DNA of 64,000 nucleotides from Pseudomonadota bacterium (GCA_023229365.1 JALNZK010000002.1:126343-190342); one strand, 5' to 3'. Numbered from the stretch's first letter, positions 283 to 40,023 are shown. Numbers and translations are program-made. Notes: a model not told the origin generated them from the letters alone.

Positions 283-1011
283 TTATAACATTTTCAATAA
301 TTTTAATCGCTTCCACAAATCAAACATTAATAATGAATATTTATGAAAACAACTGGGCATTTGCTGCATTTGCTCCGATTGTTCACAATCAAAATAACGA
401 TATGATTTAACCATAACATCTCTTACATCTGGTTGATTAAAATAACCAGACAAAGAGGATGGGTTGAAATTATGCACTGATAATATTTGCTCAAGATATG
501 TCTCTTCTGCTCGTGGGATATTGTCATTTGCCGAGCCATCATGCCCATACATATCCCAATTAGCAGGAGTTCTGAATGCGTAATTATTGCTTTGATAGTC
601 AAAAAGATAAGTCGGAAATGGATGTTTAGCCAATTGCACGGAATTGCCGTAAAAATAACGCAAATAATGCCACCTAATAAATCTTCCAAATTGTGCAGAT
701 TTTAAAACACAACAAATATTTGGATCAAACCAATCATCATCATCAATCGGTAAGATTAGATTATTTTCATCTCTCAATAAACCCTGCATTTTTGGATCAT
801 TTTCATAAACGACAAGATCGGCCTGAATGTCCGCTAAATTAACTTTCTGTATTTCGTGTAGTGCAATTCTAAATTCGTGATATGGTATATTGAACAAAGA
901 ATTCCATGTGTCAATGACTAATTCTGCTCTAAATACTTTTGTGTAAAAACTAGATGGAAAATATTGACGAGACCATACTTGATCCTGGCGAATTACTATT
1001 ATTATCTTCAT
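283..1011 (-). CDS. hypothetical protein, possibly glycosyltransferase-like (acidic DDDD patch); first gene of an overlapping 4-gene minus-strand operon
   Basis: 242-aa ORF whose stop overlaps the next gene start; no confident motif. Confidence 0.45.
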   Translation of the reverse strand: MKIIIVIRQDQVWSRQYFPSSFYTKVFRAELVIDTWNSLFNIPYHEFRIALHEIQKVNLADIQADLVVYENDPKMQGLLRDENNLILPIDDDDWFDPNICCVLKSAQFGRFIRWHYLRYFYGNSVQLAKHPFPTYLFDYQSNNYAFRTPANWDMYGHDGSANDNIPRAEETYLEQILSVHNFNPSSLSGYFNQPDVRDVMVKSYRYFDCEQSEQMQQMPSCFHKYSLLMFDLWKRLKLLKML

Positions 1012-1481
1012 GTATGACCCAATGTTGTGAAAACCTGTCCAAGGTAATTCACAACAAACTTCTCCATCCCTGGATATTTACTCTCTCTGTTCCCGGCTAT
1101 ATTTAGTGTTTCTATGTTGTGTTCCTTTATCCAATCCACAACCTCTTGCACAGGTCGTGGATTCTCCACATCCACATCAATGATTGGTTTTTCAAACCTG
1201 CTGCAAGATTGAGAAGTCAATATTTCACCCGCCGAGTCAAAATCAAATGCGAATCGTATTGTGCCATCGCCCATCTTGGCATTGGCGTGAGTTCTGGGCA
1301 CATAACTATCCGTATTGGTTTCCCAAAGCCCAAAACGTTCAATCAACTCTGGTTTTGTCCCAGCTTCTGTTTTACACCCTTTGGGACACCAACCACCAGT
1401 CTTTATCCCAAATTTCTCGGCGGCTATAAGCCCACCTAAATCCGCCCCCGTCTGGGCACCACTACAAACCATTTTTAACAT
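1008..1481 (-). CDS. SLOG-superfamily protein (YpsA / molybdenum-carrier-like)
   Basis: N-terminal SGAQTGADLGG...GGWCPKG and later GDGTIRF, IAGNRES resemble the MoCo-carrier/YpsA SLOG Rossmann motifs. Confidence 0.5.
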   Translation of the reverse strand: MLKMVCSGAQTGADLGGLIAAEKFGIKTGGWCPKGCKTEAGTKPELIERFGLWETNTDSYVPRTHANAKMGDGTIRFAFDFDSAGEILTSQSCSRFEKPIIDVDVENPRPVQEVVDWIKEHNIETLNIAGNRESKYPGMEKFVVNYLGQVFTTLGHT

Positions 1482-2002
1482 ACAATTACCTTATTCCTTT
1501 GCCAAAACTCTTCTACTGTGCCCTTTCCAGCCCATTCCCTCGCTGGGCCACCTGTAATAGCATTTGGATACACAAATGGCACCTTCATGGGACTTAACTC
1601 ATAACCAGAACTGGTAAGCCCTCTAATTTCCAATAATTTTTCAGCATTGGGATTGAAGTGCATCCCCAGTGCCCGAAATGCCCGGCGTACAGATACGTCC
1701 TGAATATGCCTCGGCACAGCCTTTGTGTCATGATTGCATCCAGAAACTACATTCGATGGATCATTGTCATAACAGTCTCTGTATTGGCTGGCCATGCCAT
1801 GAAAAATACTATATTTATCTTCCTTTATATACAGCAAATAAGAAACATCATACAAAAGAACAGCCTCATTAAATGTAAGAATTTCATCATAAAACTCCCA
1901 ACATTCTTGCCAGTTTCCCTCGCCACAATAAGCATCAAACATTTTCTCCCACTTTGTCCGATCCTTGCCAAAATATCCTGGCTTGGCTATGATTTCCATC
2001 AT
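1475..2002 (-). CDS. hypothetical protein
   Basis: 175-aa ORF translationally coupled to both neighbours. Confidence 0.45.
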   Translation of the reverse strand: MMEIIAKPGYFGKDRTKWEKMFDAYCGEGNWQECWEFYDEILTFNEAVLLYDVSYLLYIKEDKYSIFHGMASQYRDCYDNDPSNVVSGCNHDTKAVPRHIQDVSVRRAFRALGMHFNPNAEKLLEIRGLTSSGYELSPMKVPFVYPNAITGGPAREWAGKGTVEEFWQRNKVIVC

Positions 2003-3012
2003 CAGTCCTCATTTTTCTTGGGAATAAACCCAAATCCATCACTCTCGTCAGATTTGGGACGCTCTTCAATCATAATTCTCAATGTTTCCACGGCATCCTT
2101 GTATTCTTCTCCTAAAATGCACACCCCAATAAACAACTCTTTCAAATGTGCAATAGAAAAACCACTCGTATCCTTTGTCCATTTGGCAATATCAATTTTA
2201 ATGGTGGGGTTTTGTTTCGCTAAATGCTCGAAATACAATTGTCTGCATTTCTTATTGGGATTGGGCATCATAAATCTTCTGTCAAATCTGGAAGGACGAT
2301 TGATAATTCGATCCCCCAATTTCTCTGGATAGTTCGTGGTTGCTAAAAAAACCACCCGTTCAATTTTCTCAACACCATCCAAAATATTGAGCACCTCCGA
2401 CTCTCCGTACTCTTCCAACAAGGAATCAATGTCTTCCATCAATACCACAATCTTTGTGTCAGGCTGCACTTCTCTGAATAATCGCACCCCCTCCAAAAAC
2501 ATATGAGGCACAGAATTAAACTTGAACACAACGCCGCCACGTTCAATTACATCGGCCATAACGATCTGAATGGTACAACTCTTGCCAGAACCCGCTGGAC
2601 CCCACAGAATCAATCCACGGCGATAGGTGAGCCCAAAATCGGCATAGGTTTGCTCTTTTGTCCAGAAGTTCTGAATCTCTGCCACAACCTTTGCGGATTC
2701 GCTATCAGGAAACCGTAATAACCCTTCTGTTTTTACCTGCACCTTCTCAAAATAATATCCCTTGGTGTTAGAAAATTTAATTTCATAAACACCTGGACAT
2801 AGCAAAGGAAATGTCTTTCCAGCAGGAAAGAAACGAGTACCATCAGATGTGGTCCATTGTGTCATACGTCCAAATTTTTCTTCTTCTTCATCCATTATAG
2901 CATAGGGGTTTTGAGAATTTCTGGGCATCTTGGTCATAATAGCCCCCAAATTGATGGTGCTACCTTTTTTTTCCAAAATATCATTTAATATTCGCTGACT
3001 CTCAACTGACAT
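2002..3012 (-). CDS. AAA+ ATPase
   Basis: Walker A ILWGPAGSGKSC and Walker B VVLMEDID. Confidence 0.7.
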   Translation of the reverse strand: MSVESQRILNDILEKKGSTINLGAIMTKMPRNSQNPYAIMDEEEEKFGRMTQWTTSDGTRFFPAGKTFPLLCPGVYEIKFSNTKGYYFEKVQVKTEGLLRFPDSESAKVVAEIQNFWTKEQTYADFGLTYRRGLILWGPAGSGKSCTIQIVMADVIERGGVVFKFNSVPHMFLEGVRLFREVQPDTKIVVLMEDIDSLLEEYGESEVLNILDGVEKIERVVFLATTNYPEKLGDRIINRPSRFDRRFMMPNPNKKCRQLYFEHLAKQNPTIKIDIAKWTKDTSGFSIAHLKELFIGVCILGEEYKDAVETLRIMIEERPKSDESDGFGFIPKKNED

Positions 3013-3104
3013 CCTTTATCTCCTTGTTGAAGTTAAAATTCTACAGAGTTATTATAAAAGAAATGATTGATAATGTCCATATATAAAATCTGAGGTATTT
3101 AAAA

Positions 3105-3464
3105 ATGAAAACTTTTCAACAATTTATGGAAATGGCTAGAGTGGCAGCCATAAAACCAGCTATCAAGTCGCAAATGAATCGAGAGATCAATGCAATTGCC
3201 AAAGGGTTTCATGATAAAATACCCCTCTCGCCAATCTTTGCCGTTCTGGAAAAACTGGGCTACCAAGCCGTGCAAGAAGATGGCACCCCGTGGTCGGGAA
3301 TGCTGGTCGGCGGGGGAGAGTGCGGCAGCGAACAATCTAGAAGCCAAGTGGCCAACATTGACATTGTTCGCAAAGAAGATAATACCCCAATGAACAATGC
3401 CCTCTACCTATCCTGGTGTAAAATGCCATCAGGCCGATATGAAGTCGTTGCATACATTAGTTAA
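3105..3464 (+). CDS. small internal-protein-like polypeptide with a CTS-like N-terminus (MKTFQQFMEMARVAA)
   Basis: N-terminus closely resembles the T4 IPIII capsid-targeting sequence MKTYQEFIAE as I recall it; GAGGT ribosome-binding site upstream. Confidence 0.6.
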   Translation: MKTFQQFMEMARVAAIKPAIKSQMNREINAIAKGFHDKIPLSPIFAVLEKLGYQAVQEDGTPWSGMLVGGGECGSEQSRSQVANIDIVRKEDNTPMNNALYLSWCKMPSGRYEVVAYIS

Positions 3465-3465
3465 T

Positions 3466-3501
3466 AAAAAAAGCCCCGCTCATCCGAAAATGAGCGGGGC
3501 T
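3466..3501. terminator. bidirectional rho-independent terminator between convergent genes
   Basis: GCCCCGCTCAT-loop-ATGAGCGGGGC hairpin; T-run on the minus strand. Confidence 0.6.
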
Positions 3502-3524
3502 TGCCTTCGGCACCGACCCAGACG

Positions 3525-4868
3525 CTATTTCTTTTTAGTAGGCTGAACCATATTCGGGTCCAACGACAAATCCTTAGCGGTCTTCGCTGTCAACAGGGCG
3601 ATCAAATCAGAAGCTCCATTTTGTGCTCCTGCGGTGCCAGTTGCTCCATTTCCCATAACAATCGACGGCACCCAACTTCCCTCATGCTTCGCAATAGCTT
3701 CGGCATAAGCCTTGTTGATTTCAACCCAAGCGGCCAATTTCTTTTCCAAAGCACCGTCAGCCTCCATCACCAATGTGCGACGTTTGGCTTCACCTTCACC
3801 CAAGGCAATTTGCTCTTTCTTTGTCATTTCGGCTGCTTGTGCTGCCAACTCGGCCACCTTCAATTCCTGGGCAGCCTTGGTTTCGGCCACGGACTTTTCC
3901 TGCTTCGCCTTAGTTTCAGCCACAGTCTTGTCCTGGTCAGCCTTGGCAACTTCCTTAGCGGCAACTGTCTTTTGCTCCCACTCAGCCTTGGCAGCATTAG
4001 CTTCACCTTGCTTCTTGGTTGTAATACATTCCTGCTCGGCTTGTTTCGCAGTAGCCATAGCGATCTGAACTTGCATAGTCAGTTTTTGCTGCTGGCTAAT
4101 TTGTTCTTCAACCTGCGGATCGTATGCAACTTCATTGATACTAAGATTAAAAACCTTAATCCCAAATTGCTTCAAAGGACTTTCTTCTGCTCTCTTTGGC
4201 TTTCCGTCCTTATCAGTAACTAACTCAACTTTGGCAATTGTCTTAATAGCACCTGTAAGAGGGTCAGTTGCCTGCTCTTGAGTAGTCTTGGTAAGATAAA
4301 CACCATTCTGGATTTGATCCTCAATCAAATTAAGCAATTCATTCCGGCGTTCGGCATAAGATTCCTTTGAACTCATGGTCGGGCCAGTCATATAAATTGA
4401 CTTCTCGATGATTGTGCGAATCAATTGCTGTTCGACCGCCAAATGGCTTCCATATTGCTGATGAATACGTGTTAGATGCTCTTCATCCAATGGCATCTCC
4501 CAACTAATACCGCCTGACAGTTGGGCATGCCCACCGTCATTGAATCGGATTTTGATAGAGTTGTCTGCGGCAGCAGCCCCTTGGTCATTCTTGGCAGAGA
4601 ACCAAAACTGTGACCGTCTATCATAGCAAGTTACTTTGCCGAATCCTTGATACTTCACGCCCTGTGATGTGTACCAATCTAGTTGGCCTTTGACCGGGCT
4701 CTGAATTACCATAAGTTGTTTGGCGTCCAAGTTCTCAAAAAATCCAAACAAACTAAAACACACAACAACACACAAAATCACAGAAACCAACAACAACAAC
4801 ACTTTTCTCGGGTCCATTGAGTTCTCTCCTTGATACGAGGGTTCAGAATAAACACTACTACGCTTCAT
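3525..4868 (-). CDS. SPFH/flotillin-like membrane protein (YqiK/FloT-like)
   Basis: N-terminal TM helix, SPFH-like core, C-terminal EA/KA-rich coiled-coil repeats (VAETKAKQE...). Confidence 0.6.
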   Translation of the reverse strand: MKRSSVYSEPSYQGENSMDPRKVLLLLVSVILCVVVCFSLFGFFENLDAKQLMVIQSPVKGQLDWYTSQGVKYQGFGKVTCYDRRSQFWFSAKNDQGAAAADNSIKIRFNDGGHAQLSGGISWEMPLDEEHLTRIHQQYGSHLAVEQQLIRTIIEKSIYMTGPTMSSKESYAERRNELLNLIEDQIQNGVYLTKTTQEQATDPLTGAIKTIAKVELVTDKDGKPKRAEESPLKQFGIKVFNLSINEVAYDPQVEEQISQQQKLTMQVQIAMATAKQAEQECITTKKQGEANAAKAEWEQKTVAAKEVAKADQDKTVAETKAKQEKSVAETKAAQELKVAELAAQAAEMTKKEQIALGEGEAKRRTLVMEADGALEKKLAAWVEINKAYAEAIAKHEGSWVPSIVMGNGATGTAGAQNGASDLIALLTAKTAKDLSLDPNMVQPTKKK

Positions 4869-5104
4869 TTCATTTGCCTTTCTTCAATTTCTATTTCTGC
4901 TTGCAATGCTTTCAATTGTCTTTTCTTTTTTGCCAAATCCACCTCCTCTTTGGCTGATGCTAATGCGGCATCAACTGTTTTGTTTTTCCGCTTAAAAATA
5001 GGAAAAGTTGGTCGGCCCAAAAGAATAGGAGCGATTACTTGGGTTATGGTAAACCCAACTATCAACACCACAATAATAAACTGGACAGCTTCTAAAAAGA
5101 CCAT
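4865..5104 (-). CDS. NfeD/YqiJ-like small membrane protein, partner of the flotillin
   Basis: 79 aa with TM helix then a charged coiled tail; overlaps the flotillin start; mirrors yqiJ-yqiK / nfeD-floT operons. Confidence 0.45.
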   Translation of the reverse strand: MVFLEAVQFIIVVLIVGFTITQVIAPILLGRPTFPIFKRKNKTVDAALASAKEEVDLAKKKRQLKALQAEIEIEERQMK

Positions 5105-5162
5105 ATATTACCCTCCATTGATTCCAAAGATTATAACCAATTTAGGATTTCTTTGCAAGATA

Positions 5163-5195
5163 AAAACCCGGCTGCACTTGCGTGCAACCGGGCTC
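5163..5195 (-). terminator. rho-independent terminator downstream of the 5210..5638 gene
   Basis: CCCGGCTGCAC/GTGCAACCGGG hairpin followed by a T-run on the minus strand. Confidence 0.5.
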
Positions 5196-5209
5196 GAAAG
5201 GAGACGCCG

Positions 5210-5638
5210 TTATTTTTCATCTAAAGAACGCAATGCTGTAGTAAGAAGGAACAAATCTATTCTGTCATCCTGAGACCAACCAGCATCGCCCGCACCACAT
5301 ACGCAAACAAATTGCTCGGCAGTTGCAGCGGCAATAATATCTGCTTTTTCCTCTTCTGATAGTTTTCTCACGCAAAAAACATCATGCATATCAAGTCTGC
5401 AACATGCACACAGAGTTTGCAAAAGCCTTGAGTTAAATTCCCCATCCTCAAATTCAACTTGATGAATTATTTTGGATAGAATTCCTTTTGGCAACCCAAT
5501 ATGTTCTTCTAGTGTCGCCAATTCAACATCTTCTTTGGCTCGCTTGCGAAAAGACTCTGCAACACCTTCGCAGATTCTTTTTTTTACTCCAGGCATACCG
5601 CCGTCAAAATATTCCCAAACGCATTTTTCATCAAACAT
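5210..5638 (-). CDS. hypothetical protein
   Basis: 142-aa ORF. Confidence 0.45.
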   Translation of the reverse strand: MFDEKCVWEYFDGGMPGVKKRICEGVAESFRKRAKEDVELATLEEHIGLPKGILSKIIHQVEFEDGEFNSRLLQTLCACCRLDMHDVFCVRKLSEEEKADIIAAATAEQFVCVCGAGDAGWSQDDRIDLFLLTTALRSLDEK

Positions 5639-5640
5639 GG

Positions 5641-6174
5641 TTAAACTTTCGGCAAAATTCTTGCCTTGATGTCTGCGATGATTTTTTCTTTGTCATAATC
5701 AGGGGCATCTTCGTGGGATGTGTGACCTGGACCGTATAATTTATTCAGGTTCTTTACGTCATCATCTTCGGCATCTGGATTATCCCAATCTTGATCTGCA
5801 TTGCCGTATGCTTGCTTTGTGTCTGTATTCCACGGATTGCCATCTGTAGGAATATAGGCTCGTAATTTTTTGCCATCCCAGTAGACCACAAAGAAGACTG
5901 GTATTTCCCAATCGCCGCCAGCACTGACACCAAAAAAAGTCATGCCGTTGTCTAATGTGTTGTAACCAAGCAATCCCTCTAATTCATAACAACAATTGCT
6001 GGTATCTGTGGTTACATTTTCAAAATCGAATTCGACCTTGAAATCACTTCGCACAAAATTGTAATCATACACATTACGTTGGGATGCACCGATTTTCCCA
6101 GCCAATTCAACAGCTTCAATAGGGGCAAAAAATCTTGGCATTTTTATTTCCTGTGTTCTACAACAGCTTGGCAA
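5641..6174 (-). CDS. hypothetical protein
   Basis: 177-aa ORF, acidic C-terminus. Confidence 0.45.
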   Translation of the reverse strand: MPSCCRTQEIKMPRFFAPIEAVELAGKIGASQRNVYDYNFVRSDFKVEFDFENVTTDTSNCCYELEGLLGYNTLDNGMTFFGVSAGGDWEIPVFFVVYWDGKKLRAYIPTDGNPWNTDTKQAYGNADQDWDNPDAEDDDVKNLNKLYGPGHTSHEDAPDYDKEKIIADIKARILPKV

Positions 6175-6741
6175 AACTTAAACACATCTTCGCCAGACCA
6201 TCCGTTTTTCGCATATTGTGCCATCAATGACACAAATTGAATATTAGTGGAGGTGCTGGGAATCGCACCCAGGTCACGCACGGCACGCCAATGAGTTTCT
6301 ACATGTGTATCTTGCCGTTTATGTCGTCTGTATAAGCCACAGCAAGCAAAGGCTCATACGACCTATCGGCGTTATCTTAGTTCAATTTACGCCATCTACA
6401 TTGAACGCAGCCAAATTTTTGACGGGTTTTTGGACGCCTTGGCGAGCTTCCTCAACCCGTGGCCACTCACGCAGCCAGTGCAACGTAATCGTTAGCAACT
6501 AAATTTTTGACCAACTTTTTTACATGGCCTGTTGGTCAGCCATGACATGCAACTCAAGGGCTAAAACCGTCGTTCGATTCTATTCACCCCCGTTTCGGCT
6601 TTTTGCCATCCACACACAGTTTACGAAGAAGCCGAAAACTCCCTCACTGTCTTTCAAACGCATGAATGGGGCCTGTACGCTAAGCTTTCGCTTCGGTCAG
6701 GTAACGCCATTATACTTCAGAAACTTAGTTTGTAAACCCCA

Positions 6742-7125
6742 TTAGCTCCAACCATTCTCTTCACTCCATCCGGGGGGATCATAATAAGGCTTTGGCTCCC
6801 ACATCAAATCATGCTCTGTTTTTTCGAATTTCACATTGTATTTACGAACAACGGCGTCAAAGTCCAAATTCTTCAATATCTCCCACCACTTTTTCCACTC
6901 TCTGGCATCCTCTGGAGAGATTGGACCACCACGCACCGCATACAAGGTTTTTTTTATCAAAGAACTATCGTGCAAAAATTCGGCTGAACAAGTAAGCATG
7001 GCATCCCTCGCACCCTTTTGAGGGGAGGCAGGGCCATAAACACATTTAGAATATGGAATGAGCCCCAAATCAAATGCTTCTTGAACAGTCATTCGAGCAC
7101 AACCAGATTGTTTATCAAACCACAT
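6742..7125 (-). CDS. hypothetical protein
   Basis: 127-aa ORF. Confidence 0.4.
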   Translation of the reverse strand: MWFDKQSGCARMTVQEAFDLGLIPYSKCVYGPASPQKGARDAMLTCSAEFLHDSSLIKKTLYAVRGGPISPEDAREWKKWWEILKNLDFDAVVRKYNVKFEKTEHDLMWEPKPYYDPPGWSEENGWS

Positions 7126-7157
7126 GTTATTTACTCCTATATTGCTATACGAACATC

Positions 7158-7421
7158 ATGAATAAAAAGAGTAAAAAACACCTGGATAAAAAATGCTGTT
7201 TCTGTGGGGAAACTGATTATTCTACATTAGATGTCCACCGCATCCTCCCCGGCAGCGATGGTGGAAAATACACAGAATCTAACACCATCACTTGCTGCTG
7301 CAAGTGTCATAGAAGAATTCATGCAAAAGAAATTTCCATATTAGGAAAAAGATTCTGCACAAATGGTCGATACTTGGTACATTTTATAGAGGGTGCAAAA
7401 GAACAGTTTAGAGAAATCTAG
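7158..7421 (+). CDS. HNH endonuclease
   Basis: CCFCG...DVHRILPGSDGG...N...CCCKCHRRIH HNH/zinc motif; start moved to the internal ATG at 7158. Confidence 0.7.
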   Translation: MNKKSKKHLDKKCCFCGETDYSTLDVHRILPGSDGGKYTESNTITCCCKCHRRIHAKEISILGKRFCTNGRYLVHFIEGAKEQFREI

Positions 7422-7621
7422 CCACCCTTAAAGGCTTCCCCCAAGCCGTAGAGAAATGCACCAATCAATCCCATCCAATACCCCAAAGCAGGAAGTAGAA
7501 AAACTGCAATCATTTTCCAAATACTCGGGTCTGGTTTGGCTCCCATAATCAGGGCAAACAACATTCCAACACCACCCACAAGGGCCAAAAAAAATCCGAT
7601 TAAAACATAAACCCAGAACAT
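7418..7621 (-). CDS. small membrane protein
   Basis: 67 aa, two hydrophobic helices. Confidence 0.4.
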   Translation of the reverse strand: MFWVYVLIGFFLALVGGVGMLFALIMGAKPDPSIWKMIAVFLLPALGYWMGLIGAFLYGLGEAFKGG

Positions 7622-7630
7622 GTAGCCTCC

Positions 7631-8458
7631 TTAAATATATGCTGCAAATTTCCCTCGAACTGCTGCCTGAACCACATCGGGTTTCACCCCCTTAGCCAGC
7701 AAATACTTTGCAAACTCCTCTGGGGTGTTTGGCTCTACTGGTTTAGTACGTAAACTTTTACGCATCTTCTCTTCTGCCACGTTCATAAGAATCTCCAAAA
7801 AACTCTTCCCTGATTCTATATCCAACCCCGATCCTCGACCCATTAGGTCCATCAATTTGAAAACAATCCATATTTTAATCTTGCGATCTGGGGCGAATTT
7901 GCCATCAATTCCAATTGATGCCTTAATGTGTCTACTAAGTCCCTTCTCACTAAACTCCATATGTTTTGGAACTACAAACCACACAATTTCCTTATCTTCT
8001 GGTGATAGGTTGTCCAGAATAGACTGCCACTTATTGCCTAATTTTTTTATTTGCGGCTCATAATGCTCTGGGTCTTCGTGAGCATGGGCTGTCCATTTCC
8101 CTGGTCCGAAGTCAGGTGACATCATCTGTTTTACAGTGTGCCCAGGAAAATCAGACAACGGTTTGATGGTATTATCGGGATATTTGTAGCCTGCGGTGGA
8201 GGCTTTGCCCACATCATGCAGCCAAGCAAGTATCCTCAAAAGCATTATATCCCCATCGCTGACCGATGGCAAGTTTGAAAAAGCCTCTTCTCCCCTAGCT
8301 TTCTCAAACATTTTCACAGCTACAGGCAGAGCTTTTCTAACAAGCCTTGTGTGTAAAAACACAGACCCCTCTGGGTGCCATTGTGCGGACTGTGGCACAT
8401 TTTTCAAAATATCCCGTAAGCTGCTCATTTCTAACCAATTTTTGAATTCCATTAACAT
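7631..8458 (-). CDS. HD-domain phosphohydrolase (CCA-enzyme-type HD) with a CTS-like N-terminus (MLMEFKNWLEM)
   Basis: H...LHT and AWLHDVGK HD motifs; N-terminal MEFKNWLE. Confidence 0.6.
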   Translation of the reverse strand: MLMEFKNWLEMSSLRDILKNVPQSAQWHPEGSVFLHTRLVRKALPVAVKMFEKARGEEAFSNLPSVSDGDIMLLRILAWLHDVGKASTAGYKYPDNTIKPLSDFPGHTVKQMMSPDFGPGKWTAHAHEDPEHYEPQIKKLGNKWQSILDNLSPEDKEIVWFVVPKHMEFSEKGLSRHIKASIGIDGKFAPDRKIKIWIVFKLMDLMGRGSGLDIESGKSFLEILMNVAEEKMRKSLRTKPVEPNTPEEFAKYLLAKGVKPDVVQAAVRGKFAAYI

Positions 8459-8512
8459 ATCTATTGTAGAAAATTATAGTTTCTACACTAAATACAGACA
8501 AGAGGTAAAATT

Positions 8513-8701
8513 ATGGCCTTTCAATTAGACAAAGAGAATGCGATGATTGCAGGCGTATGCAGTGGACTTGCCAAGGATTTTAGCTGTGACCCATTTATTA
8601 TCAGGATATTATTTATAATATTCTTTTTAGCTGGCGGTAGCGGAATACTCCTTTACCTCATCCTTTGGCTTCTAATGGCGTTAAATACACAAGGAAAATA
8701 A
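8513..8701 (+). CDS. PspC-domain small membrane protein
   Basis: IAGVCSGLA...D....R..F...G.G...Y...W pattern plus a TM helix. Confidence 0.55.
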   Translation: MAFQLDKENAMIAGVCSGLAKDFSCDPFIIRILFIIFFLAGGSGILLYLILWLLMALNTQGK

Positions 8702-8702
8702 T

Positions 8703-9929
8703 ATGAAATATCCCAAATTCAACAAGTTTCTCGAAAGAAAAGACCCAGAGTTGGTTCGCAAACCCAAAATTATCAAAACAGGCGACAAGCTAACTGGAGC
8801 CGATGATCTTTGCGGCGAACCCAATAAGCCACCCAAAGAAGCCAAGACACACAAAAATATAAAAAAAGTAGCCGATGAGCAACCTCAGGTCAAAGAAGGA
8901 TTATGGGCTAAGTTTTTGGAAAAAAAGCAGGCAAGCTCTGTGGTAGAAAAACCAGCCACGGAAATTATTGCTGACTATCCCTTCAAGCCACCCGTTGCTC
9001 CTCCCGAAGCCAAGACCAAGGGAAAAAATTGGGATACTAAGGCTCCCAAAGCCAGCAAACCCGCTGCCTATAAGCAAGGCACAGATGCTAAGCCCAAAAA
9101 TAGTGATGAAGGACTGGGTAACTTAGGGAGTATTCCCCGAGAAGAAATTAAACTCAAGGCAGGCGATTCACCACATATACCGGGCGGAAAAAGTGTTGGG
9201 GATTACACTACAAAAACAGAGACCTTCTTAAAGAAAACAAAAGGCATGCCCCTGAGCGAATTCACCCAATACATGATTAAAGAAGAGCGATCTGTTGAGG
9301 GCGTTCATCAAGCAGAAGTGCCACAAGCTATTAAATACATTGCTTCAGTAGCCAACAATGAAAACATTTTGCGAGATTTGGTTGTGGCGTTGAGACAAAA
9401 AAAATTAATCGGCAGCCTGATGGAAATGTTGATGGAATATCCTGAGTCTTATCGATCCCTTACTAATCTTTTGGGAGAAGAACAAAAAGGCTCTATGCGT
9501 TGCAATGCATTAGTACGAGCCATGAATGAAATCGTTGGTCCTCCTATTGGAATAGACAATATAGGAGACGATGAAGAAGTCACCCGTCGCATTGGTGATG
9601 ATGGCGAACCAGAAGATTTTGAAGACGATGACGAAGATTATCCAGAGGATGATGATGATTTTGAAGATGAGGATGAACTAGGTGACGAAGATGAATTAGG
9701 CGATGAGGATGAACTAGGTGACGAAGATGAATTAGGCGATGAGGATGAGCTAGGTGACGAAGATGAGTTAGGCGATGAACTAGGTGGTGAAGATGAATTA
9801 GGCGGCGAAATGCCTGGAATGGGGAAACACATAATGGGCATGATGGGCAAACATATGGGAATGCATCGAGGAAAGTTTGCAATGGACCATCTTATTCATG
9901 CATTAAATCAATATATGAAAAGAGATTAA
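8703..9929 (+). CDS. acidic protein with DEDELG tandem repeats and an M/G/H-rich tail
   Basis: AAGGAAAA ribosome-binding site; 36-bp periodic DNA repeat at 9661-9822 encoding (DEDELG)n; N-terminus MKYPKFNKFLE is weakly CTS-like. Confidence 0.6.
   Translation: MKYPKFNKFLERKDPELVRKPKIIKTGDKLTGADDLCGEPNKPPKEAKTHKNIKKVADEQPQVKEGLWAKFLEKKQASSVVEKPATEIIADYPFKPPVAPPEAKTKGKNWDTKAPKASKPAAYKQGTDAKPKNSDEGLGNLGSIPREEIKLKAGDSPHIPGGKSVGDYTTKTETFLKKTKGMPLSEFTQYMIKEERSVEGVHQAEVPQAIKYIASVANNENILRDLVVALRQKKLIGSLMEMLMEYPESYRSLTNLLGEEQKGSMRCNALVRAMNEIVGPPIGIDNIGDDEEVTRRIGDDGEPEDFEDDDEDYPEDDDDFEDEDELGDEDELGDEDELGDEDELGDEDELGDEDELGDELGGEDELGGEMPGMGKHIMGMMGKHMGMHRGKFAMDHLIHALNQYMKRD
9661..9822 (+). repeat. in-frame tandem repeat (18/36-bp unit) encoding DEDELG x ~8
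   Basis: gatgaggatgaactaggt / gacgaagatgaattaggc alternating units. Confidence 0.8.
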
Positions 9930-10388
9930 ATGAACACATCATTCAATGAATGGCTGAAACTTCATGAAAAGTGGGATATCATAGGCCCAAACACTCCCGT
10001 TCCTAAAGACACAGATGAAGACGACGATCCCTGGGAAGATTGGGGCGACGATGAGGACTGGGAGGATGAAGAGCGACGAATGCGAAGAGGGCACGCATTA
10101 ACTGGAGTTCGAACACCAGTAAGTGATTTGGGAACCACTCAAGGAAGAGCCTTGGGAAAAGATTCTCGACTTCCCCGTGGAATGCACATAGTAGACCCTG
10201 ATAAAGAAGAGCTACAAAATGCTAAACAATACCTTGGGGCAGAATATTACAGGCTAAGAAACAAATTAGAAAAAGGTGTCGCCACCCCAGAAGAAAAACA
10301 TCTACTGAGGACATTAGCCAGAAAACACATAGAAGGAATCTACCACCGTAAAAAACCTGCTACTGTGCGTAAATTCACATCCTTCTAA
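9930..10388 (+). CDS. acidic CTS-like protein (MNTSFNEWLK)
   Basis: ATG overlaps the preceding stop (TAAATG); D/E/W-rich region. Confidence 0.5.
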   Translation: MNTSFNEWLKLHEKWDIIGPNTPVPKDTDEDDDPWEDWGDDEDWEDEERRMRRGHALTGVRTPVSDLGTTQGRALGKDSRLPRGMHIVDPDKEELQNAKQYLGAEYYRLRNKLEKGVATPEEKHLLRTLARKHIEGIYHRKKPATVRKFTSF

Positions 10389-10548
10389 TCATCCTTATCT
10401 AGATGATGATACAACCATTCGATTGTATCATCATCATAGCCCAAATTTCTGAAACTTGCGTAATCCCCTGGAAAATCCCTTGTGGGCTCGCATGTAAACA
10501 CTGTCTCTTTGAGCTTTTTGAAGAATGCCTCATCCATCGCCTTGTCCA

Positions 10549-11133
10549 TTAGTAGCTCTCCAACATTTCGTACCACCATCTGATGCTTTCAAGTCCCTCG
10601 GCAGCTAAATCTCTGCCGTCCAGAGCTAAATGGTTATCTTGGCCGGGCATAACAGTATATTTTGCCCTGATTCTACCAATGGCATACTTGACGTGTGCTA
10701 ATACGCCTTCCTCTTCCAGAATTGATAACATCTCCTCTGGCATTTTCGATTTATACACATCCATCACCCTTTTAATTCTATTGGCAATCTCTGTGTATTG
10801 CTCGTCTGTAATTTCCAATGAAACAATTGGAGCACCGAGCATTGCAAAAACAAATTCTTTTCGCACCATGCTGTCACCTTTCTTGGTGTAATCTAACTTC
10901 TGTTCATTTTTTGGCATGTTAGTAGTAATTTGCATTGCCTGCTTCTCTTTGGCACTAACAGCGGGAAACTCCACCACAACTGTCTTTTCTACCATATCAA
11001 TAACCCGCATCATACCCCAAAAGAAGCCATCCTCATTTTTGCAAAACTGGACAGCTTGATTTAAATAATCAAATTCCTGTCCATCGTATTTCCATCCTTC
11101 ATCCTGTAGTCGGCTTTCTATTCTGTATCTCAT
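10549..11133 (-). CDS. hypothetical protein
   Basis: 194-aa ORF in a minus-strand operon. Confidence 0.45.
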   Translation of the reverse strand: MRYRIESRLQDEGWKYDGQEFDYLNQAVQFCKNEDGFFWGMMRVIDMVEKTVVVEFPAVSAKEKQAMQITTNMPKNEQKLDYTKKGDSMVRKEFVFAMLGAPIVSLEITDEQYTEIANRIKRVMDVYKSKMPEEMLSILEEEGVLAHVKYAIGRIRAKYTVMPGQDNHLALDGRDLAAEGLESIRWWYEMLESY

Positions 11134-11438
11134 TCAATTACCTTATAGCCCCATTCTTTGGCTTTTACCAATACTTCTTTATGGTAAGCGTCTTTAATTT
11201 CTTGCGAACAATGCGATGGATATGGCTTACAAGTCAATCGCCGTCCTATATCTGCCATCAATTTCTCTCTGGTAGGAGTATCGTCTGCACCATATTTTGC
11301 CATATCCATCAATATATCCCACTCACCATCCATCAAACCACGGATTTCACTCTCTGTAAGATCAATGCTCAAACAATCCGCAATCATGTCATGGATATCA
11401 ACAATATCATCAGGCTCTAATTCAATCGAACACTTCAT
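11130..11438 (-). CDS. hypothetical protein
   Basis: 102 aa. Confidence 0.45.
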   Translation of the reverse strand: MKCSIELEPDDIVDIHDMIADCLSIDLTESEIRGLMDGEWDILMDMAKYGADDTPTREKLMADIGRRLTCKPYPSHCSQEIKDAYHKEVLVKAKEWGYKVIE

Positions 11439-11673
11439 CTCTTATCCACCCTACTATATCTGTGGTTGTTTTATTGCCAAATTCTTTCTCGGTAGCTTCG
11501 ACTACACTATGGTCGAACGTATGATAATGACCATATCGAAATGGATGATGATTATCGCTATCGTAGGCATCACACCATTCCCAGCCGAGTTGTTTTAACT
11601 TACCAACAACATCTAATTCCTGCAATCCATCGGGCACCTGTATTAACCATTCTCTATGCTCATAAACTATCAT
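11422..11673 (-). CDS. hypothetical protein
   Basis: 83 aa. Confidence 0.4.
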   Translation of the reverse strand: MIVYEHREWLIQVPDGLQELDVVGKLKQLGWEWCDAYDSDNHHPFRYGHYHTFDHSVVEATEKEFGNKTTTDIVGWIRDEVFD

Positions 11674-12173
11674 TCTAAATCTTCTTCTTCAATTTCCTCG
11701 GTGGTATCTTCTTTGTCTTTCCTTGCATTGTCTACAAAATCTTGAATGCTGTCTCTCCACATGCCATGTCGTTTGACGATACAAGCAAACTCTTCCATAT
11801 CGTGCGGCTTACAAGATAATTTGAGCACCGGCTCTTCATCATCCTTTTCTTGATATTCTGCCGCCGTATGACACAATTCGTGGTCAACCAAAGCAATACG
11901 CTTATCTTCTGGAAGAACATCCCAAATTGGCTCAGAAATTGTAATAACAAAGAATGGATCACCACCACTTTGTTTGTCAGCAGCCAAGTAGGCATTGAGA
12001 TTGGTTATTTTTCGACATGTGCCCCAAACTTCCGAATCGCCCTTCATAGGAACCTTATCTATGAATAAATAATCCACCCGCACATTGAAATCCACAATGT
12101 GTTGATGATATTTGGGAATCAACTCATCAGCAATTTTTTTAACTTCTGGAGCGTCTTTGTAAGTTGTTGTCAT
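11670..12173 (-). CDS. putative zinc metallopeptidase (HExxH)
   Basis: VDHELCHTAAE motif. Confidence 0.5.
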   Translation of the reverse strand: MTTTYKDAPEVKKIADELIPKYHQHIVDFNVRVDYLFIDKVPMKGDSEVWGTCRKITNLNAYLAADKQSGGDPFFVITISEPIWDVLPEDKRIALVDHELCHTAAEYQEKDDEEPVLKLSCKPHDMEEFACIVKRHGMWRDSIQDFVDNARKDKEDTTEEIEEEDLE

Positions 12174-12469
12174 TTTTTATTCCTTTCGTTCATTATGTTG
12201 TAAATTAAGTCCCATAACTCGCATGGAACATTATCAGCTATTTCACCAGAATTTTCATAATCCCAAATTATTTTACTGGCATTACTAAACAATTGTTTGG
12301 ATGGTTTATATCCGCCCAGTTCATGTATAGCTCTACTTGCCACTATTTTACTTTTTTGTGACACATTTAACAATAGGATTTTATGGAGATATTCATCCAA
12401 TATTTCTATCGGAGTGTTGCTTTTTGTCTCTGGGACAGTTGTGTAAGAGATTCTTTTTGGAAACTTCAT
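12170..12469 (-). CDS. hypothetical protein
   Basis: 99 aa. Confidence 0.4.
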   Translation of the reverse strand: MKFPKRISYTTVPETKSNTPIEILDEYLHKILLLNVSQKSKIVASRAIHELGGYKPSKQLFSNASKIIWDYENSGEIADNVPCELWDLIYNIMNERNKK

Positions 12470-12472
12470 AAA

Positions 12473-12835
12473 TCACCAAACTGTTGCTGCTATTAGACCT
12501 GCACCGTCTGCCGCCCACTCAAAGGCAGTCTTTTTAATTACTGTAACCCCATCATCTTGTGTCACAGACAATTCTGTTTCAAGAGGAACTTCGTTGACTT
12601 CTATTTCGTCCACAGGACAATCAAGTAAATGATCTACCAACACTTTAGATAAATCACTTAAGTCAGTGCCTTCTGGAACCAATGGTTCTAAATATAATCG
12701 CAAAGCCTCATCTTTAGATTCGGCAGCGAACCACCATTGTTCTCCATCGTCAATTTCATACACATTCATTATTCTCTCCTCTACTGGATGTTCATAATTT
12801 GGAAGAGAAGTCTCGTACTCATATCTGCTTGTCAT
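12473..12835 (-). CDS. hypothetical acidic protein
   Basis: 120 aa. Confidence 0.4.
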   Translation of the reverse strand: MTSRYEYETSLPNYEHPVEERIMNVYEIDDGEQWWFAAESKDEALRLYLEPLVPEGTDLSDLSKVLVDHLLDCPVDEIEVNEVPLETELSVTQDDGVTVIKKTAFEWAADGAGLIAATVW

Positions 12836-13061
12836 TTTTATCCTTTATGCCTAAAACTTTACTAGTATAATCGACTTTATTACGACTTCCAGAATACAAA
12901 GCAATTGAATTATCAATAATTTCAACTTCTATGTCTGCTGCACATAAGTCGTAATCTTCGAATGTTTTATCTTCGTTATAAATCCTAAAAAAATATTTCT
13001 TCACAAAAGGGCTATACAACAAAAATCCACGCACACCTTTGGCTGGCTTTTCTTCGTTCAT
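12819..13061 (-). CDS. hypothetical protein
   Basis: 80 aa. Confidence 0.35.
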   Translation of the reverse strand: MNEEKPAKGVRGFLLYSPFVKKYFFRIYNEDKTFEDYDLCAADIEVEIIDNSIALYSGSRNKVDYTSKVLGIKDKNDKQI

Positions 13062-13393
13062 TTTGATGCCTTTTTGCGAACTTTCCTAATCTTATGCGGA
13101 CAAAAATTAGTACCCGTTGTTTCCGATACTTTTTCTTCCCCCATATAAATAAAAACTATGGCTGATCCTGTTAGCACCGCTGATGGTCTTGGCTTATATG
13201 GCACAGCCAAGATACCATCTTGTGCTATATTGACATAAGAAAACAAGCCCCGCTGCCCCATCGCCAGCTTTTCCCCAGTTTGAGTAACATAATATGGACC
13301 ACCAGAGCAACGAAATACATCCCCTGGATGTAGCGTGACCTTAGGGCTATACTTAAAAGGTTCGGCAGGTGGTTTAGGTTGCTTTTTTTTCAC
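13058..13393 (-). CDS. hypothetical basic protein
   Basis: 111 aa, K-rich ends. Confidence 0.4.
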   Translation of the reverse strand: MKKKQPKPPAEPFKYSPKVTLHPGDVFRCSGGPYYVTQTGEKLAMGQRGLFSYVNIAQDGILAVPYKPRPSAVLTGSAIVFIYMGEEKVSETTGTNFCPHKIRKVRKKASK

Positions 13394-13409
13394 TCAAACA
13401 CGCTCTTTA

Positions 13410-14747
13410 TCATAATGGCTTGTCATCAAACCTGATTTTCATTTGCTTGCCACCACGAGCAGGGCTCAGGAACCTTGATGATAACAGATCATACTTCACC
13501 GGGTCAACATCAGTTATTCCCAAAAGATAATTTATCATAAACCCGGCACCAGAGCCTCTGCCCGGCCCTCTTGCCGTGCTTCCCGTGCCGCCGTATAACT
13601 CGATGCATTTCTGACGGGCAGCGTCAACCATCATTTTTTGAATAATAAAATACGAAGAAAACTCCTTCTCTTTCACCAAGGTGTATTCTTCCTGCATTCT
13701 GGACAAGTATTCTCTAGTCTTTGGTATGCCTCTTTTAGTCGCACCCTCTTGGATAAGTTTTTTCAACACTTCATCATCATTGGGAATTTTTGGCAATTTT
13801 ACCGAGCGATCCAGTTGCACTCCCTTGCATTGTTCGCATATACGCACAGTATTTGCCTTGGCAGCATTAAACAAATCCTTATCGAGATAAGGGTCAGATG
13901 CCCATTTCTCATTGATCTCCTCTTCGGATTTCATCCAGAGATTAGTGTCTTGCAACTCAAAATATTCTTCAGCTTTACCTTCGGCAACGGCTTGCTCCAT
14001 ATCGGCTACCGTTCTCTTAGAGCCAGTCATAAGCATTAACCGTTGCATTTTGCTGTCTTCTTTTTTGCAATAATGACAGTCTTGTGTGAGCACTAACGGA
14101 ATGCCTAATTTTGCATGTGCTTGAACAATGAATTGGTTGTAGGGCTTTTGTTTAACAAAATCCAACAACATGATTTCCAAATAATAATTTTCACCAAACA
14201 AGTTGTGATATTTCTTGATGGTCTCTATAGCCATTTCGGGACCGAAGTTTTTAAATGCTTGTCCCACTGGACTATTAAAACAACCGCTGCCAACCATCAA
14301 CCCCTCTTTATGCTGCACTAATTGATCCCAATTAATGCGAGGCTTATAGTAGAAGCCGTGTAGCCATCCAAAAGAAGTTAAACGAACAAGATTTTTATAT
14401 CCTGTCTCGTTTTTGGCCCACAAGGTCATGTGATATGACTTCTGCATCGCCTTGCGGGCTTCTGGTGGCATCTCTTTAAGATACTGCTGCATAGTCTCGC
14501 CCTTTTGCACACAGGGCTGTTTTGGTTGATAATAGATTTCTACGCCAAAAATTGGCTGCAAACCGTGTTTATCGCAGCAAGCGATTTGGTTAGGAACAGC
14601 ACTCATCATGCCGTGATCGGTAATGCAAAGATATTGTTGATTTATTTCTTTGGAATAAATCGCATACTCTTCAACTGTGCCGTATCCATCCAACAAAGAA
14701 TAATGAGAATGGCGATGCAAATGCTCGAAACCAACTATGTCATTCAT
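13410..14747 (-). CDS. DnaE-like DNA polymerase III alpha N-terminal fragment (PHP domain plus start of palm); truncated or split gene
   Basis: HLHRHSHYSLLDG PHP motif; GPGRGSGAGFMINYLLGITDVDPVKYDLLSSRFLSP matches the DnaE thumb/palm entry, then the ORF stops. Confidence 0.65.
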   Translation of the reverse strand: MNDIVGFEHLHRHSHYSLLDGYGTVEEYAIYSKEINQQYLCITDHGMMSAVPNQIACCDKHGLQPIFGVEIYYQPKQPCVQKGETMQQYLKEMPPEARKAMQKSYHMTLWAKNETGYKNLVRLTSFGWLHGFYYKPRINWDQLVQHKEGLMVGSGCFNSPVGQAFKNFGPEMAIETIKKYHNLFGENYYLEIMLLDFVKQKPYNQFIVQAHAKLGIPLVLTQDCHYCKKEDSKMQRLMLMTGSKRTVADMEQAVAEGKAEEYFELQDTNLWMKSEEEINEKWASDPYLDKDLFNAAKANTVRICEQCKGVQLDRSVKLPKIPNDDEVLKKLIQEGATKRGIPKTREYLSRMQEEYTLVKEKEFSSYFIIQKMMVDAARQKCIELYGGTGSTARGPGRGSGAGFMINYLLGITDVDPVKYDLLSSRFLSPARGGKQMKIRFDDKPL

Positions 14748-16292: not shown

Positions 16293-17891
16293 TTATCCAA
16301 TGATTTTGTCATATTCCTGTCTGTTGACCGCAACAACAGTATCTGGTGATCTGGTGACATAGATCAATTCCTCGCCATCTTTGTCCCTGGTAGCCAATAT
16401 GACTTCTCTGTTCAACCCCCACAATCTTCGCAGAGAAAGGATGGTATCCTTTGCATAGGAAGGATATAGCGGATATCCATCCCACTGATGCTGTAACAAC
16501 ATGTGCCCTCTATTTAAATGGTTGGGATCAGCCAGCCGAACATCTGGCAATCCGCCGTTCAAATAATCGCCAATTAATTTCTTTTTAATTTTCTTATAGT
16601 CACGACTCTTGATTACATACTCTCCATTAGGTCGATGTTCCCACTCAAAGAATTCATATTTATTGCAAAAATCTTCTGTGAAGAATTCTGAAATAGCGGT
16701 GAAATCATTATAGAATTTTCTAACCTCTAATACTTTATCGTGCCCCAAGCCCAATTTTTCATCCCAATCTTCCCGCTGCTTGATATCTCGGCACTCATCA
16801 TACAGGGGTCCAAACTGGCCCTTATTCCAACGTTCTTCAATATCTTGAAAAATACAGAATCCTAATTTATAGGGATTCATCGAATACTTGCCGCCCAATA
16901 CCCCCATTTTGTGAATAGCATACTCAACAATGCCATTATCGTGTTCTGACTGGCCCAGACTAACGAAACCCTGTACTGCCATTAAGTTAAAATCAACAAA
17001 ACTAGCCCAGCCTTCGTTGAGCATTTTGGTCGGTCGTTGAGGACTGAAATATATTTCTTCCTCATAAATCATAGCAACAATATCAGACTGCCAAGGCTGC
17101 AAAGGTGCATAATCTCGAATGTACCGCAAAATGTCTTTTGTTGGCTCTTTGAAAATGTTTAATTCTTCGGCCACCTCCCTTTTTTCCAACCTCTTCCTTT
17201 GCTCCTTCATCCATTCTTCTGGATTGAGCCAAGGTTCCATATAATCATGCCCCTCTTGAACCGGCAAATGTTTTGGATGATGATAATGCCTCACGTCCTG
17301 TTTGATCGGGTCTTTAAATTTTCTCTGCTCCCAAGCACTAGCTGGATCGACCAACGTGGTAATTCTTAGCACATGATCTAAAAATTCTGTGACTTTTTCT
17401 TTGCCCCATCGTTGCATGTATTTGCGAATTCGAGTACCATGATTCGCCAATTCATTCATCATATTTTGACTAGTTGGCGAAAAGTAAACATTATTTTTGA
17501 AAAAGTCATTATGTCCTAAAGCATGAGCAACAACCGTAACATTATCCACCAACGTATTGGAATCGAGACAGTAAATATAACAAGGATTGCTATTTACAAC
17601 CATTTCGTAAATGCGATGCAGCCCATGTTCATAACCTTGTTGCAATTCATTGTATTCCATTCCCCAACGCCAATGCGGATAACGAACAGGGAATCCACCA
17701 TAGGATGCTACTTCGCTAATTTCATCATAAGTCAGCATCTGCACGACTGTTGGATAATACACCAATCCAAAGTCGGTTGCTGCTTTCATAATATTGGGAA
17801 TGACATTTTGCAATTCCTTAGGCAACACTACGCCAGGGATTGTGCTATCACCCATCAAGATCGGAGAACCACGCATCATTTTGCTTGCCAC
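16293..17891 (-). CDS. spoVR: SpoVR/YcgB-family protein
   Basis: 532 aa, SpoVR-like length and composition; immediately downstream of the DUF444 gene. Confidence 0.75.
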   Translation of the reverse strand: MASKMMRGSPILMGDSTIPGVVLPKELQNVIPNIMKAATDFGLVYYPTVVQMLTYDEISEVASYGGFPVRYPHWRWGMEYNELQQGYEHGLHRIYEMVVNSNPCYIYCLDSNTLVDNVTVVAHALGHNDFFKNNVYFSPTSQNMMNELANHGTRIRKYMQRWGKEKVTEFLDHVLRITTLVDPASAWEQRKFKDPIKQDVRHYHHPKHLPVQEGHDYMEPWLNPEEWMKEQRKRLEKREVAEELNIFKEPTKDILRYIRDYAPLQPWQSDIVAMIYEEEIYFSPQRPTKMLNEGWASFVDFNLMAVQGFVSLGQSEHDNGIVEYAIHKMGVLGGKYSMNPYKLGFCIFQDIEERWNKGQFGPLYDECRDIKQREDWDEKLGLGHDKVLEVRKFYNDFTAISEFFTEDFCNKYEFFEWEHRPNGEYVIKSRDYKKIKKKLIGDYLNGGLPDVRLADPNHLNRGHMLLQHQWDGYPLYPSYAKDTILSLRRLWGLNREVILATRDKDGEELIYVTRSPDTVVAVNRQEYDKIIG

Positions 17892-17903
17892 TATTTATTT
17901 CCT

Positions 17904-34030: not shown

Positions 34031-34058
34031 TTTTACAAAAGACCACGCTTTTGTTTCT

Positions 34059-34397: not shown

Positions 34398-34437
34398 TTG
34401 ATTGATTTACTTAACTTATCAAATTGAATAACAATTG

Positions 34438-35457: not shown

Positions 35458-35459
35458 TA

Positions 35460-36284: not shown

Positions 36285-36285
36285 T

Positions 36286-36561: not shown

Positions 36562-36593
36562 GAAAATCATTCACTATTACAAGGAGAAACAAA

Positions 36594-40022: not shown

Positions 40023-40023
40023 T

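Follow-up and report, generated by a model that had tools for sequence, protein, structure and literature searches.

The N-terminal DnaE gene

The DNA stretch analyzed here (the window) comprises 64,000 nt from Pseudomonadota bacterium (GCA_023229365.1, JALNZK010000002.1:126343-190342). Its minus strand carries an open reading frame (ORF) with an ATG start at positions 13410-14747, which codes for a protein of 445 aa that represents the N-terminal part of DnaE, the polymerase III alpha subunit (Pol III alpha). DnaE is the archetypal single-chain bacterial replicase. Here, its domains are distributed over two genes. The ORF in the window is referred to as the N gene, and the gene for the missing part, which is located outside of the window, as the C gene. 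A preliminary description of the window had reported a stand-alone N-terminal DnaE fragment with no continuation nearby, which is confirmed by the ORF itself, by Pfam and by a six-frame tblastn analysis.

The N protein matches two Pfam domains, PHP (aa 9-193, E 4.9e-42) and DNA_pol3_alpha (PF07733; aa 327-431, profile positions 2-98 of 260, E 6.3e-23). In PHROGs, it matches phrog_405, which is annotated as "DNA polymerase" (E 1.8e-115). The PHP domain core (14169-14723, minus strand) has all nine metal ligands (H11, H13, D20, H45, E70, H106, C156, D223 and H225). By analogy to the PHP proofreaders of Taq and of Mycobacterium tuberculosis DnaE1, this domain is likely an active 3'-5' exonuclease.

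The PF07733 match corresponds to the palm-entry subdomain, which binds the nucleoside triphosphate (NTP) and is encoded at 13455-13769 (minus strand) up to the RFLSPAR helix. It aligns with residues 384-459 of Taq Pol III alpha, and this alignment includes the GPGRGS motif (aa 394-399; 13551-13568, minus strand). The G[GS] motif is the triphosphate-binding motif of Pol-beta-like nucleotidyltransferases. After the GPGRGSGAGF...FLSP segment, there are 14 aa (GGKQMKIRFDDKPL) and then a stop, and the C-terminus reads ...GPGRGSGAGFMINYLLGITDVDPVKYDLLSSRFLSPARGGKQMKIRFDDKPL. This clade-specific tail (13413-13454, minus strand) is found at the place of the canonical catalytic strand. The catalytic aspartates (D401, D403 and D555 in E. 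coli) are not contained in the ORF, and the tail has Lys or Arg in their place.

The gene is closed by tandem stops (13407-13412, minus strand; TGA at 13412-13410 and TAA at 13409-13407). At its other end, the ATG overlaps the stop codon of an upstream 66 aa ORF. The downstream ORF of 111 aa (13058-13393), which had been described as unrelated, indeed has neither a Pfam nor a PHROG match.

When the 1179 aa DnaE from the phage genome LR756511.1 was compared by tblastn to the six frames of the window, only its residues 3-433 matched, at 14744-13455. Thumb, fingers and HhH are absent from the N gene and from the whole 64 kb window in this search. The preliminary description had pointed out that a contiguous dnaE might be uncovered upon re-examination of the frames; neither a frameshifted continuation nor a C-terminal DnaE half was detected in any of the six frames of the window.

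An AlphaFold2 model of the N protein has a predicted local distance difference test (pLDDT) score of 90.9 and is confident up to about aa 425. It matches solved structures of Pol III alpha (E about 1e-22 to 1e-24). The tail is weakly modeled (pLDDT below 50-62), with residues 427-437 being below 50.

The preliminary description took the window for part of a T4-like phage, where DnaE would be unexpected. However, the only T4-type signal is a faint gp13 match. No family B polymerase was found among the 30 window ORFs that were scanned. The relatives are huge phages with contigs of up to 0.57-0.67 Mb, and PF07733 is reported to be a distinguishing signature gene of the cluster that contains the largest jumbo phages (PMC9123017).

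Conservation of the split form

The N protein was compared to its best 120 homologs (53-97% sequence identity) from a collection of 5.8 billion proteins. The vast majority of these (116) have 441-484 aa and share a common end point, while the remaining four are longer, having either an intein or an extra C-terminal extension. Across 117 homologs, the tail has the consensus RFLSPARGG[KR]x[MIL][KR][LIF][RK]F. In an alignment of 110 sequences (A2), the nine PHP ligands are invariant or at least 90% conserved. Within the GPGRGS motif, G394, R397, G398 and S399 are invariant, and P395 and G396 are at least 90% conserved. R425, F426, R431, G433 and F440, which are located in the last part of the protein, are likewise invariant or at least 90% conserved. 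A protein identical to that from the window is encoded on four independent contigs from different samples, two of which belong to the 0.2-1 Mb class.

It had been considered that the gene might be a decaying pseudogene, and it might also be an assembly or frameshift artifact of a full-length dnaE. The existence of a sister clade with full-length genes (1176-1194 aa; see below) would be in line with such an origin. We nevertheless regard it as extremely improbable, given the uniform length and end point of 116 of the 120 homologs, the conservation of the catalytic ligands, the four independent contigs with the identical protein, the confidence of the structure model and the lack of DnaE homology downstream of the gene in any frame.

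Stand-alone N-type proteins are also found among remoter homologs (387-470 aa, 31-41% sequence identity). Their tails are similar (RGG-h-x-h-x-h; examples are RFLSPTRGGKLMKLEV, RFLSPSRGGRQMDFSF and RFLNPARGGKFIKLGL). As these remote lineages end at the same site, the split architecture is older than the immediate clade. A search among 50% representatives added distant lineages, and intein-bearing representatives dominate in that set. A megablast comparison to GenBank/INPHARED did not reveal any near-identical phage. The sole relative at about 50% in these databases is LR756511.1, a 595 kb uncultured phage (49.8% sequence identity), and its DnaE is unsplit (1179 aa).

A separate observation concerns the tip of the N protein. 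In 28 of the 117 orthologs, the protein extends past the tail by an acidic stretch that ends with [CAS]PF (P0009, P0010, P0025, P0033, P0048, P0074 and others). This resembles the acidic DDDIPF tip of the bacterial single-stranded DNA-binding protein and could be a partner-binding motif. The tip of the protein from the window is only ...FDDKPL.

The partner gene and its location

In a search for the C half, the query consisted of the last 746 aa of the DnaE from an unsplit relative. This retrieved 12 full-length proteins (1176-1194 aa), followed by more than 100 stand-alone C-terminal proteins. The latter mostly have 820-950 aa, are devoid of a PHP domain and carry PF07733, PF17657 and PF14579. 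Many of them come from contigs that are 0.2-0.67 Mb long. In these proteins, the catalytic P-D-I-D-V-D motif is located around residue 85-90, and D95, D97, D99 and D254 are invariant in the alignment of the C proteins (A1).

The partner of the N gene was found in the ENA contig ERZ27247350:k141_1665208 (locus L096, 100,493 bp). This contig was identified via the 242 aa ORF of the window and is 99.6-99.9% identical to window positions 1-11047. It also carries the identical N gene. The C gene starts at position 18231 of L096 and codes for 872 aa. Its product covers PF07733 profile positions 100-259, has the fingers and HhH (PF17657, PF14579) and carries PDIDSD and KVDVL, which contain the catalytic aspartates. 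The distance from the stop of the N gene to the start of the C gene is 20,592 nt, and both genes are on the same strand. Thus, the C gene starts about 7.2 kb past window position 1, on the minus strand. The remainder of DnaE is encoded elsewhere, which was one of the options raised in the preliminary description, and is found 20.6 kb downstream, beyond the end of the window.

Window positions 1-13409 (minus strand) represent the first 13.4 kb of the 20.6 kb spacer between the N and C genes. The spacer is filled with unrelated cargo genes (PhageMetallopep, SPFH/Band_7, AAA, cpYpsA, two radical SAM genes and a methyltransferase). In the window, the cpYpsA-like ORF is followed by the 242 aa ORF and then by a radical SAM gene that is truncated at the left edge. 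This left-edge ORF (1-320, minus strand) was at one stage a candidate for the C half but was rejected, being a radical SAM protein; it begins with MLKIEQSKF...CNLRCRFC, which is a radical SAM signature, and corresponds to a 356 aa gene in L096. There, it is followed by the methyltransferase and the second radical SAM gene, all of which are within the spacer. Directly before the C gene in L096 is a divergent gene, with only 63 nt in between. Thus, the C gene is not simply a downstream cistron of the N gene.

Two minor points about the spacer may be added. The window (about 9684-9774) and L096 (1244-1364) differ in length by about 30 nt in a locally repetitive region inside of the ORF at 8703-9929. 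The spacer ORF at 11670-12173 (minus strand) belongs to the PhageMetallopep family, its PHROG being labeled "transposase". A homolog in a relative (L072, 9447-10004) is located directly upstream of the C polymerase gene, which suggests a rearrangement within the spacer.

Organization of the break

The break divides Pfam domain PF07733, with positions 2-98 being encoded by the N gene and positions 100-259 by the C gene. In the Pol-beta-like fold, this point is after the G[GS] motif and before the metal-binding strand. The two proteins are not simply complementary. Each C protein opens with about 85 extra residues (RLxxELxEIxAQNExxYFLxLxxxKxRYPxNxNNLLVPYLLGIVxDFDI...PDIDVDY). Upon comparison by hhalign, aa 3-78 of the C fragment match aa 323-417 of the N fragment (probability 93.7%, E 1.9e-7). 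The C extension also matches the same region of the unsplit DnaE (99.5%, E 1.5e-22). It lacks an insert of about 19 aa that bears the GPGRGS loop. The overlap between the N and C proteins is roughly 75-95 aa, with about 16% of the residues being identical.

In a global profile alignment to full-length DnaE (by hhalign), the tail of the N protein is placed opposite to the canonical P-D-x-D-x-D-F strand, with MKxRF aligned to DvDF. Hydrophobic positions are kept and Lys or Arg replaces the aspartates, the per-column confidence of this alignment being low. None of the 92 C extensions has a GS motif, and none of the 117 N tails has a DxD motif. The overlap is a vestigial duplication in which the GS and Asp motifs have degenerated reciprocally and completely.

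Inteins were looked for at the break. According to Pfam, neither the N tail nor the 88 aa at the start of the C protein contain a Hint/intein domain. Residues required at splicing junctions are also lacking, with no Cys or Ser at the break in the N tail (ARGGKQMKIRFDDKPL) and no HN-C/S/T in the C extension. As a positive control, the same Pfam scan detected true inteins in L010, P0053, P0223 and P0239. Two of these, L010 (9995-12589, with a LAGLIDADG domain) and P0053, have their intein inside of the N protein motif (GPGRG|S), as is the case for many N orthologs (the relatives surveyed include the representatives P0241-P0258), while P0223 and P0239 have inteins in the fingers of the C fragment. 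Additional insertions of intein size, recognized from the break in the alignment and not by Pfam, are found near aa 225 (close to the PHP ligands D223 and H225) in other relatives. None of the inteins seen in relatives is at the split junction. That inteins have inserted precisely into the GS motif of the N protein points to functional constraint on this motif.

The C protein of a relative (P0231), which is encoded on the same contig as an N gene, was modeled with AlphaFold2 (pLDDT 81). The model matches solved Pol III alpha structures and has an OB-like C-terminus. Its N-terminal extension forms confident helices (pLDDT 75-91). Segments with a pLDDT below 50 are the catalytic strand (90-104) and the region 205-256, which includes the third aspartate. 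In the models of both proteins, segments close to the junction are thus weak, which would fit folding on assembly.

Gene order in relatives

A total of 61 IMG/VR loci were retrieved with a profile of the C protein. In 43 of these, an N gene is found at most 10 kb upstream of the C gene on the same strand. Four further loci have the N gene 10.7-12.9 kb upstream. The spacer varies in content and in length (0.3 to 20 kb). This variable cargo between the halves marks a gene-insertion hotspot in these genomes. In two loci (L056 and L050), the N and C genes are almost adjacent, with 343 nt or a single small reverse gene between them. Even there, the halves are separate genes, each with its own stop and start.

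The order that is common to the window and its relatives is PrkA, DUF444, SpoVR, small ORFs, the N gene, other genes, AAA, cpYpsA-like and the C gene. In the window, the first three genes are encoded at 16293-23948 (minus strand; PrkA, 21873-23948; DUF444/YeaH, 17904-19172; SpoVR, 16293-17891). In related huge-phage contigs, this trio is likewise located just upstream of the gene for the N-terminal part of DnaE.

It is conceivable that the two halves are joined covalently, either by a split intein, by RNA trans-splicing or by programmed DNA excision of the spacer. DnaE proteins with split inteins and fractured genes are known (PMC3919608, PMC2677866), inteins are common in the gene family under study, and the overlapping homologous segments superficially look like flanking repeats. 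Covalent joining is, however, very improbable. The break has neither a Hint/intein domain nor junction residues, and the C extension is homologous to palm helices of DnaE, not to an intein. With about 16% identity, the overlap is too diverged for homologous excision, and no recombinase was seen in the spacer, the content and length (0.3 to 20 kb) of which vary. Furthermore, the N gene is closed by tandem stops. The preliminary description had suggested that an intein, an intron or a homing endonuclease caused the fragmentation. This is not borne out at the break, where there is no Hint/intein signal and where the halves have their own starts and stops and are nearly adjacent in some genomes.

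Evolution of the split

A neighbor-joining tree, rooted on the DnaE from a Streptomyces phage, was computed for 12 full-length and 57 split proteins. In this tree, which has no support values, the full-length and split forms are sister clades. Given the unsplit outgroups, the simplest reading would be that the ancestor of the split clade underwent one fission. A duplication with subsequent complementary truncation may have given rise to it, which would account for the overlap between the N and C proteins. The reciprocal vestigial duplication thus suggests how the split arose. Later insertions of cargo would have expanded the spacer from about 0.3 kb to 20 kb.

A probable replicase encoded by two genes

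The conserved end point of the N protein, the C gene on the same strand, the reciprocal overlap and the break that is devoid of inteins are best accounted for if the two genes function together. We consider it probable that the ORF in the window is one of two genes which jointly encode a DnaE-type (C-family) replicase in a clade of huge phages. Subunit 1, the product of the N gene, would provide the intact PHP domain for proofreading and that part of the palm which binds the NTP and contains the GPGRGS motif. Subunit 2, the product of the C gene, would provide the three catalytic aspartates, thumb, fingers, HhH and the OB-like C-terminus. The chains would stay unspliced, and non-covalent assembly is most likely. 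We infer that the two proteins associate and that they form a composite active site, to which subunit 1 would contribute the GS motif and subunit 2 the aspartates.

A more detailed proposal is made only tentatively. The active site, distributed over two polypeptides, may be kept in contact by the vestigial copies of one palm segment that both chains carry, including a pseudo-strand with reversed charge. Each gene has kept a degenerate copy of the segment that is provided by the other. Subunit 1 ends in a pseudo-catalytic strand with Lys or Arg in place of the aspartates, and subunit 2 begins with about 85 aa that are homologous to the palm-entry helices and devoid of the GS loop. The overlapping vestiges probably stabilize each half and may form a docking interface.

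Alternatively, the two proteins might be independent enzymes, the N protein being a stand-alone PHP 3'-5' exonuclease and the C protein a self-sufficient polymerase without a PHP domain. The palm remnant of the N protein would then be a mere structural support for the PHP fold, while the C protein would make use of its own vestigial helices. The conservation of all nine PHP ligands is compatible with this view, and so are the confidently predicted helices of the C fragment, which are homologous to the palm entry. The N and C genes have separate expression signals, and there is a precedent for a DnaE-like polymerase without PHP domain accompanied by a separate exonuclease gene (e.g., the Pbunavirus locus L097). 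We consider two independent enzymes to be unlikely. Although PHP chemistry does not involve the GPGRGS motif, this motif is conserved in the N protein and is targeted by inteins. It is absent from all 92 C fragments, so that a C protein acting alone would lack the hallmark of the Pol-beta-like fold. In addition, order and strand of the N and C genes are conserved across diverse contigs, and the strand-like tail of the N protein, which is also conserved, has no obvious role in a free exonuclease. Among the alternatives offered in the preliminary description, it is the split gene that stands, the decaying pseudogene having been discarded above. A repurposed PHP exonuclease is less likely because the GPGRGS motif is conserved and because of the synteny with the C half.

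Several points weigh against a jointly encoded replicase. Both halves keep homologous helices, which cannot share one canonical position in the palm, so that it is not obvious how a composite site would be arranged. With the aid of the vestigial helices that it carries, the C fragment might be able to fold and function by itself. Shallow alignments (35 sequences for the C protein) could also be the reason for the low pLDDT at the junction, and the neighbor-joining tree lacks support values. Finally, the phage may have other polymerases, which would be encoded outside of the window.

If the genes jointly encode a replicase, a conserved, intein-free break within the palm would indicate that the catalytic center of DnaE can tolerate being built from two chains. 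If the composite site is real, it would represent a naturally occurring example of duplication, degeneration and complementation within a single catalytic domain. It is also tempting to speculate that replication could then be gated by expressing the halves from separate transcription units. The system would be ready-made for studying how the PHP domain and the palm communicate with the polymerase core of Pol III alpha. For genome annotation, the consequence would be that thousands of proteins of about 450 aa which are annotated as "DNA polymerase III alpha", and fragments of about 850-900 aa from huge phages that lack PHP, are halves and not broken genes.

Comparison with other split and unsplit polymerases

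Taken together, the two genes encode the same domains in the same order as the canonical DnaE1/Pol III alpha proteins with solved structures (2HNH from E. coli; 2HPI and 3E0D from T. aquaticus; 5LEW and 7PU7 from M. tuberculosis). In contrast to these, they are 20.6 kb apart and the break is in the palm, where it separates the catalytic strand from the GS motif. Both sides carry a vestigial segment of about 75-95 aa, and the N protein ends with a Lys/Arg pseudo-strand.

In the cyanobacterium Synechocystis, DnaE is split by an intein at about residue 774. Cyanobacterial DnaE with split inteins and metagenomic "fractured genes" are cases where two genes, for DnaE or another replication protein, give rise to one functional protein (PMC3919608, PMC2677866). 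These rely on trans-splicing by split inteins and, for DnaE, the split is at a different site. In contrast, there are no intein parts at the break described here.

The closest published system is from group 2.2 jumbo phages. There, a "minimal" Pol III alpha is split into an NTP-binding and a Mg/DNA-binding protein, which are encoded by distant genes (Iyer et al. 2021, PMC7824862) and have been proposed to reconstitute an enzyme (PMC7824862). The minimal enzyme is described to consist of a nucleotidyltransferase core and a template-binding domain, to be devoid of PHP and any other Pol III domains and to accompany a family B polymerase (PMC7824862). Both systems are phage-encoded by two distant genes, with the boundary between NTP binding and Mg/DNA binding. 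The one described here differs by a full PHP domain in the N protein, by fingers, HhH and an OB-like region in the C protein, and in that none of the 30 scanned window ORFs is a family B polymerase. The text of Iyer et al. 2021 does not mention an overlap or a duplication, the two systems being compared by description only. In the literature, we did not find a paper describing a split DnaE with PHP domain in huge phages. The two-gene DnaE is thus a full-size, intein-free and overlap-bearing form that is widespread in huge phages, with the minimal split Pol III alpha being the closest published case.

A phage replicase that is naturally divided without an intein is not without precedent. For Aeromonas phage Aeh1, which is T4-like, Petrov and Karam (in 2006) reportedly described a family B polymerase that is encoded by two cistrons (gp43A and gp43B) and assembles non-covalently. 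As in the case described here, the replicase is encoded by two genes with others in between and there is no intein, but the polymerase belongs to family B rather than family C. We know of no reciprocal vestigial duplication for gp43A and gp43B.

A different arrangement is seen in Staphylococcus Sextaecvirus phages (e.g., S-CoN_Ph9, L101 4983-9212). Their DnaE is annotated as a "DNA polymerase" gene of 699 aa directly followed by another of 518 aa, with the break near aa 700 and a gene for an HNH endonuclease coming next. The sequence identity is 24%. This is an independent split at another site. Two other candidates were rejected. Pbunavirus matches that seemed to cover the N tail turned out to be from a contiguous 1035 aa Pol III alpha without PHP. 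Bacillus phage Kirov was considered as a split relative, but its gene is unsplit.

Other genes in the window

Two additional ORFs from the window are only partial representatives of their families. The 238 aa ORF at 20253-20969 (minus strand) contains a partial catalytic domain of class I Glu/Gln-tRNA synthetases (profile positions 3-74 of 314 and a second stretch). It adjoins an ORF of 344-364 aa without a clear family assignment (region 19219-20969, minus strand). The 238 aa ORF could be GluQRS-like or a fragmented synthetase. At the right edge (63173-63976, minus strand), a 267 aa ORF is similar to the RecA model over its C-terminal part only (profile positions 150-262). The N-terminal ATPase part is not encoded in the window, and the gene may thus be split or interrupted as well. 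No exact record was retrieved in a contig lookup with the 267 aa protein.

Interrupting a series of genes on the minus strand, a GIY-YIG homing endonuclease with a NUMOD3 domain is encoded at 36665-37474 (plus strand). The gene for thymidylate synthase (38689-39609) is nearby, as are two unassigned ORFs at 37449-38030 (minus strand) and 38024-38692 (plus strand). The surrounding region (33179-44051) contains a methyltransferase cluster with two N6_N4 family members (33179-34030 and 41308-42066), a Dam-like D12 protein (34438-35457) and a weak Eco57I-like match (42636-44051). The region 46229-49975 codes for enzymes acting on RNA ends, a Tpt1/KptA-like 2'-phosphotransferase (46229-47035) and a member of the CCA-adding/poly(A) polymerase family (48758-49975). 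A protein that resembles TnsA and endonuclease I is encoded at 47195-47887.

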